DNA of 64,000 nt from Candidatus Nomurabacteria bacterium (GTDB taxonomy: Bacteria > Patescibacteriota > Minisyncoccia > Phycocordibacterales > UBA9973), in assembly GCA_023898605.1 (NCBI GenBank), contig CP060230.1, forward strand, positions 67,944 to 131,943. Direction: 5' to 3'. The position numbers and the translations under genes were made by a program. The notes under the pieces were generated by a model. That model was not told the origin of the DNA. It was given only the letters and a program-made list of their open reading frames with translations, and made no database searches. Of this stretch, positions 3,322-17,249 are shown piece after piece. Each line of letters begins with the position of its first letter. Position 1 is the first letter of the stretch.

Positions 3322-4449
3322 ATGCTCAAGATAGGAATTGTTGGACTTCCCAATGTAGGTAAATCAACGCTTTTCAATGCGCTTACAAAAAAGTGTGTTC
3401 CGGCTGAGAATTATCCGTTTTGTACTATAGACCCATCTGTGGGTATTGTTCCTGTGCCAGATGAAAGAGTAGAACTACTTTCAAAGTTTTCTAATTCCGA
3501 GAAGTCTATACCGGCAGCGATAGAGTTTGTCGATATAGCAGGACTCGTAGAAGGTGCAAGCAAGGGAGAGGGCTTGGGAAATAAATTCCTGTCTCATATA
3601 AGAGAAGTAGATGCGATACTAGAAATGGTTAGACTTTTTCCCGCCTCCGCCAAGGCTACAGGCGGGCAAGCCCCTTCTGGCGATATTGTTCATGTCTATG
3701 GGAATATAGACCCACTCAGAGATATCAAGGTTATAAATCTAGAACTTATACTTGCTGATCTAGAAGTTGCAGAAAAAAGAATCGGAACTCTAGCAAGAGA
3801 TGTGAGAAGTGGCAACAAGGAAGCGATACTAGAAGAATCTATTTTGAAAAAAATAATCCCCGCTCTAGAATCAGAAAAGATGATAAACGAAATCGAGTTT
3901 GATGAGAAAGAGGCTGCAAAACTAAAAAGCATGAACTTTCTAACTTCCAAAAAGATAATTTATGGCCTCAACAAGAAAGCCGGTGCCAAAAACTTTGATG
4001 AGTCTGATCCAGAAAAGTTCAAAGAGTTTTGTGATTATATCGAGTCTTCAGGTGCTGGTTGGGTTCTACTCGATGCCAAGATAGAAGATGAACTCAAGGA
4101 TTTCGAGGGTTCAGAAAAAAACGAGATGAGAGAAGCTATGGGCGGAGATGATGATGGTGTGGACCATCTCATAAAAAGGTCTTATGAAATTCTAGGATTA
4201 GAAACATATCTAACAACTGGTCCAGATGAAACTCGTGCGTGGACTATCAAGAAGGGTAGTACTGCACCAGTTGCTGGTATGGCTATACATACAGATTTCA
4301 AAGACAAATTTATCCGTGCAGAAGTTGTCTTCTGGAAAGATCTACTTGATGCAGGTTCTTATGCTGAAGCTAGAGCAAAGGGAAAAGTTAGGACGGAAGG
4401 GAAAGACTATATCGTAAAAGACGGAGATGTGATTGAATTTAAAATATAA
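3322..4449 (+). CDS. ychF: ribosome-binding ATPase YchF
   Basis: Has the P-loop GLPNVGKST, then FCTIDP, DIAGLVEGAS, and the C-terminal TGS-like string TRAWTI..GSTAP.AG.IHTDF..FIRAEV. Confidence 0.95.
   Translation: MLKIGIVGLPNVGKSTLFNALTKKCVPAENYPFCTIDPSVGIVPVPDERVELLSKFSNSEKSIPAAIEFVDIAGLVEGASKGEGLGNKFLSHIREVDAILEMVRLFPASAKATGGQAPSGDIVHVYGNIDPLRDIKVINLELILADLEVAEKRIGTLARDVRSGNKEAILEESILKKIIPALESEKMINEIEFDEKEAAKLKSMNFLTSKKIIYGLNKKAGAKNFDESDPEKFKEFCDYIESSGAGWVLLDAKIEDELKDFEGSEKNEMREAMGGDDDGVDHLIKRSYEILGLETYLTTGPDETRAWTIKKGSTAPVAGMAIHTDFKDKFIRAEVVFWKDLLDAGSYAEARAKGKVRTEGKDYIVKDGDVIEFKI
3640..3678 (+). repeat. in-frame 39-nt GC-rich hairpin module inside ychF (encodes PASAKATGGQAPS)
   Basis: Stem cccgcct (3640-3646) pairs with aggcggg (3660-3666). 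It interrupts the conserved YchF string F..D.IVHV. A related core (caaggctac.ggcggg) recurs upstream of leuS. Confidence 0.6.
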
Positions 4450-4468
4450 AAATATTTTAAATTCAATC
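4431..4468. repeat. perfect 17-bp-stem palindrome spanning the ychF stop codon
   Basis: The sequence is gattgaatttaaaatat-aaaa-atattttaaattcaatc. Confidence 0.8.
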
Positions 4469-4488
4469 ATCCTGAGCTTGTCGAATGG

Positions 4489-4509
4489 GTAATAGAATTC
4501 AAAATATAA
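4489..4509 (+). repeat. second copy of the ychF 3' end (reads VIEFKI-stop)
   Basis: gtaatagaattcaaaatataa compares with gtgattgaatttaaaatataa at the true ychF terminus. It shares the 19-bp atagaattcaaaatataat with 4818-4836. Confidence 0.7.
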
Positions 4510-4514
4510 TTAAT

Positions 4515-4543
4515 TTGACATTAATACAATATTGTGTTAGTAT
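4515..4543 (+). promoter_or_regulatory. sigma70-like promoter TTGACA-17-TAGTAT
   Basis: TTGACA lies at 4515-4520, followed by a 17-nt spacer and TAGTAT at 4538-4543. Confidence 0.55.
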
Positions 4544-4603
4544 GTAGAGAAACTAGGATTTTATTCTAACGCTGTCTAGTACAATCAAAAAAAAGGAGGC
4601 AAT

Positions 4604-4741
4604 ATGTTTTGGCATACTATTGGTCAATACCAGTACGAACATGATGCAAATGGGTACACGGGATGGTACCGTTGCGTCGGAGGTAAAATGGCCAACGGCC
4701 ACTGGCCCGAGTGGAATAACAGAACTGGAGCCACGCGGTAA
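4604..4741 (+). CDS. small ORF, 45 aa (MFWHTIGQYQYEHDANGYTGWYRCVGGKMANGHWPEWNNRTGATR)
   Basis: A strong SD (AAGGAGG) precedes the ATG. The ORF has its own promoter and terminator and is locally GC-enriched. It falls below the ORF-track size cutoff. Confidence 0.4.
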   Translation: MFWHTIGQYQYEHDANGYTGWYRCVGGKMANGHWPEWNNRTGATR

Positions 4742-4759
4742 AATCGCAAAAAATCAACA

Positions 4760-4794
4760 CCCCATCTAGTAGCGAAAGCGAACGATGGGGTTTT
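4760..4794 (+). terminator. intrinsic terminator after the 45-aa ORF
   Basis: Stem ccccatc pairs with gatgggg and is followed by tttt. Confidence 0.6.
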
Positions 4795-4814
4795 GAACTT
4801 ATTAAGGTGGCAAG

Positions 4815-4835
4815 GTCATAGAATTCAAAATATAA
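4815..4835 (+). repeat. third copy of the ychF 3' end (reads VIEFKI-stop)
   Basis: The sequence is gtcatagaattcaaaatataa. It is followed directly by a terminator. Confidence 0.7.
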
Positions 4836-4840
4836 TAAAA

Positions 4841-4862
4841 CCCCGTTTTCACGGGGCTTTTT
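4841..4862 (+). terminator. intrinsic terminator (probably the ancestral ychF terminator)
   Basis: Stem ccccgt pairs with acgggg and is followed by a T-run. Confidence 0.6.
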
Positions 4863-4899
4863 CTGTATTTGTTTTGTTTTTTTGATATAATGGAAATAC

Positions 4900-5202
4900 A
4901 TGCAAAAGTACGTAAAATATTCTCTTAAATTAGCATATAGTTTTGTTTTGTCAGTCGTATTTTCTTTTTGTTTATCTGCAAGTATACCTATGATCTTTGG
5001 TGACAATTTAAGAGATTTTTTTGATTTTCAGGATAAACCATATGGATATGTAGGATTGTTTCTGCTTACTATATCTAGTATTTTATTTTTTGTGTTATAC
5101 GAAAAAAATAATAGTATCTTTAGGTCATTTGAAAGAATAACAATACTTCTTATTTATTTTGTCATTTTATCCTCATTTTTTACAGCGAGTGTGCAATATT
5201 AA
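4900..5202 (+). CDS. hypothetical polytopic membrane protein
   Basis: Contains several hydrophobic helices. No family was recognised. Confidence 0.4.
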   Translation: MQKYVKYSLKLAYSFVLSVVFSFCLSASIPMIFGDNLRDFFDFQDKPYGYVGLFLLTISSILFFVLYEKNNSIFRSFERITILLIYFVILSSFFTASVQY

Positions 5203-5206
5203 ATAT

Positions 5207-5488
5207 ATGAAAACTATAGAAAAGATATACAAATTTATATACTCAGTCTTTCTTTCTCTACCAATTATTTTACTTATAAATGTAACTTTTATTCTTTTTT
5301 TTAAGAGAGCCTCTTTTTTTCATAGTTTTGCCACTATTGGCATAGCTATAGTTCTCTCTATACCTTTTACATTTTTGATATTCAGATCAGTTTTAAGAGA
5401 GCGAAGATTTATTTTGGTTGTAGAAAGGTCTATTATAGTTTTAGTATTCTTTTTTATTGCATTTATTTTTTCAAGATTAATTTTCTAG
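5207..5488 (+). CDS. hypothetical membrane protein
   Basis: I place the start at the internal ATG at 5207, just after the upstream stop. The protein has hydrophobic helices. Confidence 0.4.
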   Translation: MKTIEKIYKFIYSVFLSLPIILLINVTFILFFKRASFFHSFATIGIAIVLSIPFTFLIFRSVLRERRFILVVERSIIVLVFFFIAFIFSRLIF

Positions 5489-5970: not shown

Positions 5971-8900
5971 ATGAATAACTATGATCACAAAGGAATAGAA
6001 CGTAAGTGGCAAGAGAGGTGGGAGAAAGACGGTATTTATACTGTTTCGGACAAGGAAGAAAACAAAGATAATTTCTATACTCTAGTAGAATTTACATATC
6101 CATCTGGAGATTTGCATGTTGGCCACTGGTACGCGTTTGCAGTGCCAGATATTTTCGCACGATATAAAAGGATGCAAGGATACAACTCACTTTATCCTAT
6201 GGGATTTGATGCGTTTGGACTACCAGCAGAAAATGCAGCGATAAAACTAGGCGCAGATCCAAAGGTTTGGACATATGAGCAGATGGACAAGATGCGTGGG
6301 CAATTCAAAACAATGGGAGCAAGTTTCGACTGGGATAGAGAGGTAGTTTCTTGCGACCCGAATTATTACAAATGGACACAGTGGATGTTCAACCAATTTC
6401 TAAAAAATGATTTGGTTTATCGCGATACTACCAAGGTAAACTGGTGTCCCAAAGACAAGACAGTTCTTGCCAATGAACAAGTTGTAGACGGCAAATGCGA
6501 GCGATGTGGAAGTGAAGTAGAGCAGAAGAACCAGGATCAGTGGATGATTCGTATTACAAAATATGCCGATAGATTGATAGACGATCTGGATATTCTAGAT
6601 TGGCCAGATGCGATAAAAGATGCACAAAAAGCATGGATAGGAAGAAGCGAAGGAAGTGAGATAAGTTTTTCTCTAAATTATGAAAAAGAAAAAGTAAAAA
6701 ATGAATATTTCAAGTTTAGACCAGAACTTGTTGAATTAATTGAAAAAGGTTTGAAGACAGCAACCTTTAGAATGGAAGCTAAAAATGTTTCTGTTGGCGA
6801 TATTGTTAGTTTGATTAATTGGTCAGATGGCAAAGAAAGTAATCAAAAAGAGTTTGATAAAGCTAAAATAATAAAAGTCTCGGAACATAAATTAGGAGAT
6901 TTGCCACTTGATTATCCTGGTCACGAAAAAGATTCTTCAGTAGAAAAAAGACTTGCAAGGTATCAAGAATACTATGGCGACCACATAACAAACGATTCAA
7001 CTGTTTATATATATGAATTTCTTCCTCTTTCAATTCGTGTTTTCACCACTCGCGCAGACACACTATTTGGCGTGACATATGTTGTACTTGCTCCAGAACA
7101 CCCACTAGTAAATAAACTTCTTGATCAAGTAGAGAACAAAGAAGAAGTAGAAAAGTATATAGAAGAAACAAAGAAAAAGTCAGAACTAGAAAGACAAATT
7201 GGTTCAAAAGATCCTTCGACTGGCTCAGGACTAGGAAAAACTGGCGTAGAATTAAAAGGTATAACTGCAATAAACCCAGCAAATGGTGAAGAAGTGCCAG
7301 TTTGGATTGCAGACTATGTGCTTGCTGGGTATGGTACAGGTGCTGTTATGGCGGTACCTGCTCACGATGAGCGAGATTTTGAATTTGCAAAGAAATATGG
7401 ATTAGATTCTAAAATAGTTATTGTGAATTCGACCGGAGAGTGTACAGACGATGCTATTTCAAGAAATGTTGTTAAATCTTTTATAGAAAAGGACGGAAAT
7501 GTATATTTAGTAAGAGATATAGGTCCAAGCGGAAAGTCTTACTGGTCACTTCCTGGTGGTGGATATGAAGATGCAGAAGACGATATCTCTGCACTTACAA
7601 GAGAAATCATGGAAGAAACTCCATTTCGAAATATAAAAATTGGACAATTCATAGGGGCATCAAGACATTGCTATGATTTCAAAGCTATAAAAAATTCACG
7701 TTTAACAAAAATATTTTACGCAAGTTATGATATTGAGAATAAAAATTCAAACCCTCAAGTTCCTGGAAACTGGTTTCCAAAAGATGAGGCAATAAGGATG
7801 CTTTTGGAAGATGGAATAATAATAGAAGGAAACATACTAAGTAACTACTTTGAAGGAAAAATTAATACAGATAATGGAATTTTGATAAATTCTGGAAATT
7901 TTAATGAAATAACTTCAGAAGAAGCTAAGAAAAAAATCACAGAATTTGTTGGAGGAAAAATGGTAAAGACTTACAGACTTCGTGACTGGGGAATAAGCCG
8001 CCAGAGATATTGGGGTTGTCCTATACCTATAGTTTACGATCCGGAAGGAAAAGCTCACGCGATCCCAGACGAACATTTGCCATGGATATTGCCGACAGAT
8101 GTAGATCATACTCCAGACGGAACACCACCTCTTGCAAGAAGCAAAGAGCTTTTTGAACGAACAGAAAAAATATTTGGCGAAGGTTGGAAGCCAGAAGTAG
8201 AAACAATGGATACATTTGTAGATTCTTCTTGGTATTTCTATAGATACTTAGATAACAAAAACGAAAAAGAATTTGCATCGATAGATAGTATGGATGCATG
8301 GATGCCGATAGATATGTACATGGGAGGAGCAGAGCATACAACTATGCACTTACTATATTCACGATTCTGGACAAAAGCTCTTTATGATCTCGGACTAGTA
8401 AAAGATAACGAGGCATATAAGATGAGACGAAACAGAGGGCTTATACTTGGTCCAGATGGAAACAAGATGAGTAAATCAAAAGGAAACGTCATAAATCCAG
8501 ACGAAGTTGTAGATAGGCTTGGTGCAGATACGGTGCGATTGTACCTTTGTTTTATGGGGCCATACGGAGTGACTGTAAACTATCCGTGGGATCCAAACGG
8601 GGTTGTAGGTGTGAGAAGATTTCTAGAAAGAGTTTGGAAATTGAAAGAAAAAATAGATCCAGAGAAAAAAGTTTGTCGTACAGACCCACTTGTACACAAA
8701 ACAATCAAAGGCGTCACGAGTGACATGGAAGAGTTCAAGTTTAACACTGCTATATCCAAGATGATGATACTATCCAACGCTTTGGAAGGAGAGGATAAGA
8801 TAGTAGAAGCTTCTTATAAAGCCCTGCTTCGTCTTCTTTCACCATTTGCACCACACATAACAGAAGAGTTATGGCAATCTTTTGGACATTCTTCGTCAGG

Positions 8901-9159
8901 CTCAGAACAAGGAACAGAAAGTATCCACCTTTCTTCTTGGCCAGAATACGATGAGAGCATGACAAAAGACGAGACCGTTATGATTGGTATTCAGATTAAC
9001 GGCAAGGTTCGTGGTGAAGTAGAGGTTGGAGACGAAGATACAGAAGAATCAGTGAGAGAGAAGGTTATGTCTATAGACAAGATAAAACCATGGTTAGAAG
9101 GAAAAGAAATCAAGAAATTTATCTACGTAAGCAAGAAGATTGTTAACATTGTCGTATGA
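5971..9159 (+). CDS. leuS: leucyl-tRNA synthetase with two extra inserted domains
   Basis: Has a HIGH-type motif (HVGH), the CP1 strings TTRADTLFG and AVPAHDERDFEFAKKYGL, and KMSKS. At 1062 aa it exceeds the roughly 800-860 aa I recall for bacterial LeuRS. Confidence 0.95.
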   Translation: MNNYDHKGIERKWQERWEKDGIYTVSDKEENKDNFYTLVEFTYPSGDLHVGHWYAFAVPDIFARYKRMQGYNSLYPMGFDAFGLPAENAAIKLGADPKVWTYEQMDKMRGQFKTMGASFDWDREVVSCDPNYYKWTQWMFNQFLKNDLVYRDTTKVNWCPKDKTVLANEQVVDGKCERCGSEVEQKNQDQWMIRITKYADRLIDDLDILDWPDAIKDAQKAWIGRSEGSEISFSLNYEKEKVKNEYFKFRPELVELIEKGLKTATFRMEAKNVSVGDIVSLINWSDGKESNQKEFDKAKIIKVSEHKLGDLPLDYPGHEKDSSVEKRLARYQEYYGDHITNDSTVYIYEFLPLSIRVFTTRADTLFGVTYVVLAPEHPLVNKLLDQVENKEEVEKYIEETKKKSELERQIGSKDPSTGSGLGKTGVELKGITAINPANGEEVPVWIADYVLAGYGTGAVMAVPAHDERDFEFAKKYGLDSKIVIVNSTGECTDDAISRNVVKSFIEKDGNVYLVRDIGPSGKSYWSLPGGGYEDAEDDISALTREIMEETPFRNIKIGQFIGASRHCYDFKAIKNSRLTKIFYASYDIENKNSNPQVPGNWFPKDEAIRMLLEDGIIIEGNILSNYFEGKINTDNGILINSGNFNEITSEEAKKKITEFVGGKMVKTYRLRDWGISRQRYWGCPIPIVYDPEGKAHAIPDEHLPWILPTDVDHTPDGTPPLARSKELFERTEKIFGEGWKPEVETMDTFVDSSWYFYRYLDNKNEKEFASIDSMDAWMPIDMYMGGAEHTTMHLLYSRFWTKALYDLGLVKDNEAYKMRRNRGLILGPDGNKMSKSKGNVINPDEVVDRLGADTVRLYLCFMGPYGVTVNYPWDPNGVVGVRRFLERVWKLKEKIDPEKKVCRTDPLVHKTIKGVTSDMEEFKFNTAISKMMILSNALEGEDKIVEASYKALLRLLSPFAPHITEELWQSFGHSSSGSEQGTESIHLSSWPEYDESMTKDETVMIGIQINGKVRGEVEVGDEDTEESVREKVMSIDKIKPWLEGKEIKKFIYVSKKIVNIVV

Positions 9160-16992: not shown

Positions 16993-17066
16993 GCTCGGGT
17001 AGCTCAGTTGGTTAGAGCACTCGCCTGAAGAGCGAGGTGTCGGCAGTTCGAGTCTGCCCCCGAGCA
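16993..17066 (+). tRNA. tRNA-Phe (anticodon GAA)
   Basis: The acceptor is GCTCGGG/CCCGAGC, the anticodon loop is CTGAAGA and the T loop is TTCGAGT. The flanks tttacaaagt and actttgtaaa extend the acceptor helix by 10 bp. Confidence 0.9.
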
Positions 17067-17092
17067 CTTTGTAAATAAGATTAGATGTGTAT

Positions 17093-17215
17093 GCTCAGTA
17101 CCGACGTCCCGACATGTGGTCGTCGGGAGCACGGAGAGCCGACAGAATCGTCGGCTTTGGTTAGAGCACTCGCCTGAAGAGCGAGGTGTCGGCAGTTCGA
17201 GTCTGCCCCCGAGCA
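17093..17215 (+). pseudogene. 3' part of the ghost tRNA-Phe with a ~57-nt double-hairpin insert after GCTCAG
   Basis: 17157-17216 is a 60-bp perfect repeat of 17008-17067. There is no matching 5' acceptor strand. The insert holds the hairpins tcccgac/gtcggga and gccgac/gtcggc. Confidence 0.6.
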
Positions 17216-17249
17216 CAAGATATAACCTAGTCAATTCTAATTTTAAAAA

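Follow-up and report, generated by a model that had tools for sequence, protein, structure and literature searches.

Small gene cassettes at duplicated ychF ends in Paceibacterota: a putative recurrent docking site

The 3' end of ychF, the gene encoding a ribosome-binding ATPase, is present three times in a 64-kb chromosome stretch (36.7% GC; hereafter the window) of a Paceibacterota bacterium belonging to the Candidate Phyla Radiation (CPR). Between the second and third copies lies a small cassette of foreign composition with a single gene for a 45-aa protein; different cassettes occupy the same site in several related loci (designated here by L-numbers), and in other relatives the site is empty. 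We are highly confident that the cassette was acquired horizontally and inserted at the end of ychF. Serial site-specific insertion, at this gene end, of cassettes without a recombinase of their own is the best reading of the data, and we assign it a probability of about 0.6. Our confidence in the specific recombination chemistry is moderate; this chemistry, the enzyme acting in trans, the order of events, and the function of the cargo are what we infer. What the data show is the anatomy of the site, the foreign origin and coding status of the cargo, the recurrence of cassettes with other cargos at this gene end, a 3' module common to cassettes, and empty sites in related genomes. The phenomenon recurs at the ychF end in Paceibacterota and has apparently not been described so far.

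In CPR bacteria, whose genomes are tiny, few mobile elements have been recognised, and little is understood of how accessory genes are gained. If the reading is true, a docking site that recurs at the end of a universal gene and holds self-expressing single-gene cassettes with a common recombination-site-like module would give genes a compact path between phages and CPR bacteria, and the additional copies of the gene end found just downstream of ychF (pseudo-ends) would offer a handle for mining small accessory or anti-phage genes in metagenomes.

The cassette at the ychF end of the window

The surroundings of ychF consist of housekeeping genes, and Pfam searches with the window's open reading frames (ORFs) identified an LTD protein, UDG, a four-helix-bundle protein, and leuS as its neighbours. 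The original prediction, made from the letters of the window, had stated that the last codons of ychF (VIEFKI-stop) occur three times, and this was confirmed (Table 1); a degenerate 18-nt pattern of the gene end (ATHGARTTYAARRTHTAR) has exact matches at these three places only in the 64 kb. Copy 1 belongs to the functional gene, and copies 2 and 3 are pseudo-ends. The latter two share, as predicted, a 19-bp direct repeat, since the 19-mer ATAGAATTCAAAATATAAT is found in exact form in both at a spacing of 326; with up to 3 mismatches allowed, it yielded 4 matches vs. 0.16 expected. A proper terminator was likewise correctly placed after the third copy alone; this canonical intrinsic terminator is probably the original terminator of ychF.

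The GC-enriched cassette described for the interval between copies 2 and 3, with a promoter, an AAGGAGG Shine-Dalgarno (SD) sequence, a 45-aa ORF, and its own terminator, was found with all of these parts in place (Table 1). GC content over the ORF rises to 0.49-0.52 compared to the window mean of 0.367, and GC at third codon positions is 0.54 vs. 0.28-0.32 for ychF, leuS, obg, and two further host ORFs. The composition of the cargo is foreign.

The cargo is a real protein gene. A metagenome search for the peptide, proposed in the original prediction, yielded five close homologs (70-77% identity, 46-71 aa), and a profile search of 1.84 billion representatives gave a family of 78 members, mostly of 40-65 aa. 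In a selection test on eleven homologous loci with GC contents from 26% to 56%, dN was 0.1-0.25 in ten loci and 0.4-0.7 in the divergent L096, with dS saturated; low dN at saturated dS shows that selection acts on the protein. One homolog is located within a 138-kb contig listed as viral in IMG/VR, amid a dense run of small genes on the same strand, and further homologs stand alone, each with a promoter and a terminator of its own. AlphaFold2, using a shallow alignment, predicted four beta strands (mean predicted local distance difference test score 74). The cargo is accordingly described here as a 45-aa, predicted all-beta protein whose family is also present in a large phage.

The peptide matched no Pfam or PHROG family, its best tblastn match in the phage collection had E = 3, and a fold search of PDB gave no match with E < 0.6; its PDB sequence profile revealed weak similarity to a WD40 blade only. 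Fusion partners within the family comprise one Fic domain and one choline-binding-repeat protein, the latter probably a false relative owing to its repeat motif. Exact look-ups found neither the YchF of the window nor the 45-aa peptide on record. A role in phage-host conflict is our guess at its function. The possibility that the cargo is a known non-coding RNA was rejected, since an Rfam scan of positions 4000-5400 at E <= 10 returned sub-threshold noise only; the best match, RT-14 (31 bits vs. a gathering score of 48 bits), covers the terminator hairpin alone, and the internal loop of that hairpin is not conserved in the homologous module of L013.

Homologs of the small ORF also occur in arrays of promoter-ORF-terminator cassettes (L083:1-1100, L091:1-2100, and L086:1640-2330). 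Repeated boundary motifs separate these arrays; L083 has a direct repeat of 105 bp, and in L091 the motif is ..ACCAAGTTCTAAATTTGTTCCATGCGCGGAGCC. The boundary repeats of L083, L086, and L091 have the form ..ACCAAG..TTCNAAATTTG..GCGGAGCC, and that of L083 reads KIKFKIW in translation. These repeats may be decayed mimics of the ychF end.

Table 1. Features of the ychF end in the window and extra ychF ends in compared loci (-stop denotes a stop codon)
Feature	Position	Strand	Details
ychF, ribosome-binding ATPase, anchor gene	3322-4449	+	Pfam YchF-GTPase_C 9e-33, MMR_HSR1; 3' end is the putative docking site
Copy 1, functional last six codons and stop	4429-4449	+	GTG ATT GAA TTT AAA ATA TAA
Perfect palindrome, 18-bp arms	4430-4469		5' arm is the ychF end, 3' arm its inverted copy
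Conserved hairpin-loop motif	4467-4488	+	TCATCCTGAGCTTGTCGAATGG; also downstream of ychF in L001 and L008
Copy 2, pseudo-end	4489-4509	+	GTA ATA GAA TTC AAA ATA TAA; putative left attachment-site copy of the cassette
19-bp exact direct repeat, left copy	4492-4510	+	putative crossover core
Cassette body between the 19-bp repeats	4511-4817	+	one repeat plus body forms a 326-bp unit
Promoter	4515-4543	+	TTGACA-17-TAGTAT, TG extension
45-aa ORF	4604-4741	+	from ATG 4604, after SD AAGGAGG 4593-4599; MFWHTIGQYQYEHDANGYTGWYRCVGGKMANGHWPEWNNRTGATR
Cassette terminator hairpin, within the conserved 3' module	4754-4796	+	CACCCCATC..GCGAAAGC..GATGGGGTTTTGA; folds
Spacer and copy 3, pseudo-end	4797-4835	+	copy 3 at 4815-4835; ..GGT GGC AAG GTC ATA GAA TTC AAA ATA TAA; putative right attachment-site copy
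19-bp exact direct repeat, right copy	4818-4836	+	
Canonical intrinsic terminator	4841-4865	+	CCCCG-TTTTCA-CGGGG plus T-run, hairpin 4841-4856; after copy 3 only
L009 pseudo-end			KDGILIEFKV-stop
L010 pseudo-end			EDGGAIEFKI-stop
L013 pseudo-ends			EDGSVIEFKI-stop and EDGGAIEFKI-stop
L026 pseudo-ends			QDGSVIEFRV-stop and a degenerate second copy
L008, L023			one extra ychF-end copy each

Several other features of the neighbourhood were recorded. Between the cassette and leuS (4900-5488), two small ORFs encode membrane proteins of 100 and 93 aa with a GC content of 0.24-0.25, well below the host mean, at the place where relatives have conserved membrane proteins of 180 and 320 aa. Within ychF, the GC-rich segment 3640-3690 encodes ASAKATGGQAPSG and contains two insertions, of 4 and 3 residues, relative to the closest 76% relatives. 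leuS (5971-9159) encodes a 1062-aa leucyl-tRNA synthetase (LeuRS) with an inserted NUDIX domain, whose Nudix box was recognised by eye in the window; the LeuRS of the related genome L183 has a NUDIX match in precomputed Pfam families.

The same site in related genomes

In the genome collection, YchF has its best relatives, at 60-70% identity, in metagenome-assembled genomes of Paceibacterota, Nomurabacteria, and the like; a closer group (L179-L183) has 76% YchF identity. In about 30 of ~45 Paceibacterota-type loci, leuS lies downstream of ychF within the sequence examined, and the interval between the two genes ranges from 113 nt to 3.4 kb, with varying content. Translation of all frames and a search for the C-terminal peptide of YchF revealed pseudo-ends in at least seven other lineages (Table 1). 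In L009, L010, L013, and L026, a stretch of 280-330 nt separates the real stop from a pseudo-end, or two pseudo-ends from each other, and the pseudo-ends following these cassettes have the form (E/K/Q)DG..IEFK(I/V)-stop. L013 contains two of them in tandem, in the order real end, cassette, pseudo-end, cassette, pseudo-end, and the window and L026 have two pseudo-ends each.

Promoter, SD sequence, small ORF, and terminator hairpin are all present in three of five cassettes (the one in the window and both in L013). The L010 cassette has an SD sequence, an ORF, and a terminator, that of L009 has no terminator ahead of the pseudo-end, and the cargo of L026 is encoded on the minus strand. A TTGACA box is found a few nucleotides (2-8 nt in the relatives) after each real or pseudo stop preceding a cassette in L013 and in the window, and likewise after the L010 pseudo-end. 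The cargos are unrelated to one another, comprising a DUF6881 protein (L009), small unknown proteins (L010, L013), and a small membrane protein (L026). Since different cassettes are found at the same spot in relatives, the ychF end can be regarded as a recurrent docking site for small mobile genes.

The original prediction had asked for an empty site in relatives, and such sites exist. In L179-L182, which share the LTD-UDG synteny upstream, the next gene begins 2 nt after the ychF stop, and in many loci a plain terminator follows ychF. In L183, a member of the same group, a 222-nt spacer without a pseudo-end follows a real ychF end (GTCATAGAATTCAAGATATAA) that is 20/21 identical to copy 3, which fits the view that copy 3 with its terminator, and also copy 2, represents an older resident form of the gene end. 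A peptide without homologs anywhere and a site without polymorphism among relatives had been named as the findings that would speak against integration; the peptide has homologs, and the site is polymorphic. L177 and L178, contigs from other samples, are 99.2% identical to the window over 2.9 kb and carry an identical cassette together with the hairpin unit described below; the two differences from the window within 4400-4900 are both inside ychF.

Local duplication followed by drift does not account for the pseudo-ends. Of the 25 differences between pseudo-ends and the real ends of their own genomes within the last seven codons, 20 fall at third codon positions (p = 2e-6 vs. a uniform 1/3; p = 5e-4 vs. 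0.46, the ~46% expected under drift of a dead copy and purely synonymous change of the live one). All real ends examined (36/36) read DGD(V/T) or DGEV, whereas pseudo-ends read DGGA, DGSV, DGIL, or GGKV. Between L010 and L013, pseudo-ends are identical at 30/33 positions and real ends at 26/33, and the GGA signature of the pseudo-ends is present in 0/36 real ends. Moreover, the terminator and spacer of the window (4752-4814, pseudo-end excluded) resemble those of L013 cassette 2 with a local score of 39, reached in 0/2000 shuffles (mean 12.3, sd 2.1); the cargos of these two cassettes are unrelated, and the YchF proteins are 60% identical. A 3' module is shared among cassettes. Judged by its homology in distant genomes, together with the pseudo-end signatures and the codon bias, terminator, spacer, and ychF-end mimic behave as a module owned by the cassettes, and the pseudo-ends behave like attachment sites travelling with cassettes.

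Conserved flanks around variable content, combined with a variable region upstream of ychF, would also suit a ychF-leuS interval that acts as a flexible island swapped by homologous recombination, the extra ends being imprecise, homology-facilitated illegitimate joins with donor ychF ends. The pseudo-ends do resemble genuine alternative ychF ends, both in their third-position differences and in the 20/21 match of copy 3 to L183, and no recombinase was found (see below). However, the 36 genuine ends examined all read differently from the pseudo-ends, and the cassettes recur with near-equal size (280-330 nt) and architecture. The promoter box is located a few nucleotides after the core in three of five cassettes and after the L010 pseudo-end, and the terminator-spacer-mimic module is common to cassettes of unrelated cargo. 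We therefore consider island exchange unlikely.

As to the variable upstream region, the alignment of L177 and L178 to the window ends upstream of ~2583, and the UDG-ychF interval also differs among the 76% relatives, with HTH plus NYN, DUF2726, or a four-helix-bundle protein as its content. Variation thus affects both flanks of ychF.

The hairpin unit and the proposed course of insertion

The original prediction of an integration scar at the ychF end is supported with respect to the duplicated end, the foreign cargo, and the polymorphic site, with the caveats that no recombinase was found and that the pair formed by copies 1 and 2 does not frame the cassette. That pair frames a separate 39-nt hairpin unit, made up of the motif given in Table 1 and, ahead of it, the ychF end in inverted orientation (4452-4469). 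The palindrome predicted at the true stop is perfect, with arms of 18 bp (4430-4447 and 4452-4469; 100% complementary, 4-nt loop, DNA fold z = -5.6) rather than 17 bp. It may simply terminate ychF, since other perfect 18-bp hairpins in the window are terminators. Read-through of the ychF stop codon was considered because copy 2 is in frame with ychF, and was rejected, as the equivalent copy in L008 is out of frame.

Gene end, perfect inverted copy, motif, and second gene end follow one another in the same order in L001 and L008, and L023 has a degenerate form of this arrangement; the inverted copies in these three loci match the synonymous codons of their own genomes perfectly. L001 has a tandem run of at least four hairpin units ending in a 100-N gap. 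This gap (L001:3375-3474), in a 70% relative, comprises exactly 100 N just downstream of ychF, inside the unit array, and may reflect either masking or an assembly broken by the repeats. Template-switch correction that uses the coding arm as its template, an idea drawn from quasi-palindrome mutagenesis, may keep the palindrome perfect.

A hairpin kept perfect in four lineages despite differing synonymous codons raises the question of whether the site is a local RNA device, in which the inverted copy pairs with copy 1 or copy 2 to control read-through downstream and the small ORF is incidental. The alternative pairing of 4447-4472 with 4487-4512 is 77% complementary, and in L023 the second pairing, as read from the sequence, absorbs differences as G-U pairs. 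In the window, however, three non-wobble mismatches disrupt the alternative hairpin, and the fold of minimum energy contains only the palindrome (hairpin A); spacer lengths range from 4 to 12 nt, and the structure is missing in most relatives. Copy 3, the foreign GC content, and the conservation of the ORF at the protein level would also be left unexplained, and we regard such a device as highly improbable.

The motif of the hairpin unit is a lead of its own. It gave 81 matches in IMG/VR, of which 31 have exactly the 4-nt gap, mostly as GAGCYTGTCGAAGGG, and many of the matches form a hairpin with a TCATCC/GGGTGA stem. In the form TCATCC-TGAGCYTGTCGAA-GGG(TGA) it is widespread in viral contigs (L100-L176). 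No Rfam family covering the motif was found, and literature searches for the motif or its translations returned no relevant paper. In L124 (1006-1072) it lies between two copies of the 21-bp end of a different gene, where the upstream ORF stops at the TGA of the motif, and in L153 between 12-bp repeats. The L124 case suggests that the mechanism behind the hairpin unit is not specific to ychF. A general use of the motif's TGA as a terminator of long ORFs was tested and rejected, as no enrichment was seen. A near-copy, GTCCTGAGCCAGTCGAAGGATC, is present at 7207-7228 on the minus strand, antisense inside leuS, where it encodes DPSTGSG; it could be due to chance or represent an in-frame mini-insertion.

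The window contains a second scar at a gene 3' end. The 3' 60 nt (17008-17067) of the tRNA-Phe gene at 16993-17067 are repeated perfectly at 17157-17216, and the insert between the two copies is 89 nt long, GC-rich, and hairpin-forming. tRNA 3' ends are a classical target of integrases, and this perfect duplication is counted in favour of integration. It can also be cited for long target-site duplications, produced by ~20-bp staggered cuts (casposase- or Cas1-like) or by templated break repair, with survival of those insertions at gene ends that duplicate the stop. Inserts of 39 and 89 nt are too small for recombining circles, the motif is flanked by a 21-bp duplication of another gene's end (L124) and by a 12-bp repeat (L153), and the inverted copy beside the ychF stop resembles snap-back templated synthesis. 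Freshly made copies, however, should start out matching the resident end and drift at all codon positions, which contradicts the third-position bias described above. In addition, pseudo-end signatures are common to different genomes and missing from real ends, the conservation of spacer and terminator between distant cassettes assigns the mimic to the cassette, and in seven other loci the extra ends come after the ychF stop and not at random positions. For these reasons, target-site duplication appears to be an improbable source of the repeats.

We therefore favour serial site-specific insertion, which might proceed as follows. The last ~20-33 bp of ychF would serve as a chromosomal attachment site in Paceibacterota. 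The docking units would be non-autonomous, with a promoter and an SD sequence ahead of a single small ORF, then a terminator hairpin and a short spacer, and finally a stretch that mimics the ychF end. With a recombinase provided in trans, the mimic of a cassette would be recombined conservatively with a resident copy of the ychF end, leaving the cassette between two cores, ychF intact, and a pseudo-end pushed downstream. In the window, an older event would have separated the functional end (copy 1) from the former one (copy 2) by the 39-nt hairpin unit, and a recent event would have brought the 326-bp cassette into copy 2, giving rise to copy 3 beside the original terminator. The cargo would be expressed from its own promoter. 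The enzyme acting in trans has to be assumed, because units of ~0.3 kb with one gene encode no recombinase. The marks of Campbell-type integration are present, namely a duplicated core, a reconstituted gene, and older ends shifted downstream as later units arrived. The arms on the element side are found between the repeats, the promoter beside the left core and the terminator-spacer beside the right core.

Several observations weigh against this proposal. No recombinase domain was found by Pfam among the 39 ORFs of the window, and none was evident in the ychF-leuS intervals of relatives, judged by ORF size and sequence only. A search of IMG/VR gave no autonomous element bearing the mimic, exact att-like strings having 0 matches. 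A double-stranded circle of 326 bp is small for recombination. The YchF proteins of L010 and L013 are 76% identical, so their pseudo-end signature could have been inherited from a common ancestor. At the 99% strain level (L177, L178) the cassette is fixed, with no excision junction or difference seen. The motif also lies between duplicated ends of a gene other than ychF (L124), and the hairpin unit of 60 bp cannot have been a recombining circle. Simple integration does not explain the origin of this unit, which may be what is left of a larger element or a templated-insertion product.

Comparison with known systems

Two classes of element were rejected. Miniature inverted-repeat transposable elements and insertion sequences are characterised by terminal inverted repeats and duplications of 2-14 bp, whereas no inverted repeat bounds 4511-4817 and the flanking repeat is 19 bp long. 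In diversity-generating retroelements changes are confined to adenines, whereas the copies of the ychF end differ by G>A, T>A, and T>C at third positions; no reverse transcriptase was found.

Phage morons resemble the cassette in being autonomous promoter-ORF-terminator units of deviant base composition, and the cassette also has a homolog in a phage genome. In contrast to morons, it is located in a chromosome amid housekeeping genes, with no prophage, and is bounded by repeats of a host-gene end. Integrative mobile elements exploiting Xer (IMEX), which integrate at dif-like XerC/XerD sites of 28 bp, and pdif modules are likewise DNA without a recombinase that integrates by mimicking a chromosomal site, and their serial integration regenerates that site; the difference is that the site here is the ychF stop region and not dif.

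Integron cassettes are similar in several respects. They are single-gene units of a few hundred base pairs whose recombinase is encoded outside the cassette, their tandem arrays have a recombination-site module at the end of every cassette, an arrangement also seen at ychF, and one type of module is common to unrelated cargos. The ychF site differs in having no intI or attI (39 window ORFs) and in using the end of a housekeeping gene as its platform. attC is an imperfect palindrome whose pairing ends contain the crossover point, whereas in single-stranded DNA folds computed for the 3' modules of L010, L013, and the window the pseudo-end stays unpaired and only the upstream terminator folds. 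No RYYYAAC/GTTRRRY core sites were noted in the cassette flanks by reading, no formal pattern search having been made. Integron cassettes are usually promoterless and expressed from Pc, whereas three of the five ychF cassettes (window and both of L013) have their own promoter. Membership in the integrons was thus rejected, given the absence of intI and attI and of an attC fold, and given the cassettes' own promoters.

A gene-capture system native to Paceibacterota that merely resembles integrons is a different matter, which we put forward tentatively and as clearly less probable than an even chance. The ychF stop region would be its platform, an ~85-nt module comprising terminator hairpin, spacer, and ychF-end mimic its recombination site, and a recombinase in trans would shuffle promoter-bearing single-gene cassettes, some of them common to phages. 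As part of the same tentative proposal, the TCATCC-UGAGCYUGUCGAA-GGGUGA hairpin would likewise land at gene ends, as a related, minimal kind of mobile unit.

Integrative elements targeting gene 3' ends offer the other close comparison. Like the ychF cassettes, they insert between direct repeats of a gene 3' end and leave the gene intact, their serial integration displaces older material and leaves extra partial ends, integrase-less units consisting of cargo only exist, and relatives have empty sites. The cassette in the window corresponds to Campbell-type integration in its 19-bp exact flanking repeat beside an intact ychF and in the empty site of relatives. It departs from an autonomous element, which has its own integrase, in holding one 45-aa ORF only, and would therefore be non-autonomous, similar to the cis-mobilizable elements of Streptococcus thermophilus, which are non-autonomous derivatives of integrative elements. 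Further differences are that the target is a protein gene and not a tRNA gene, that the ychF units are 10-100x smaller (~0.3 kb, one gene), and that in ychF arrays each unit has a promoter and a terminator, with no integrase or replication module seen. In the tycheposon islands of Prochlorococcus, repeated integration at one site leaves partial tRNAs downstream (bioRxiv 10.1101/2020.12.28.424599). In its working, the ychF-end system is thus like integrase-mediated accretion, and in the logic of its arrays it is like an integron.

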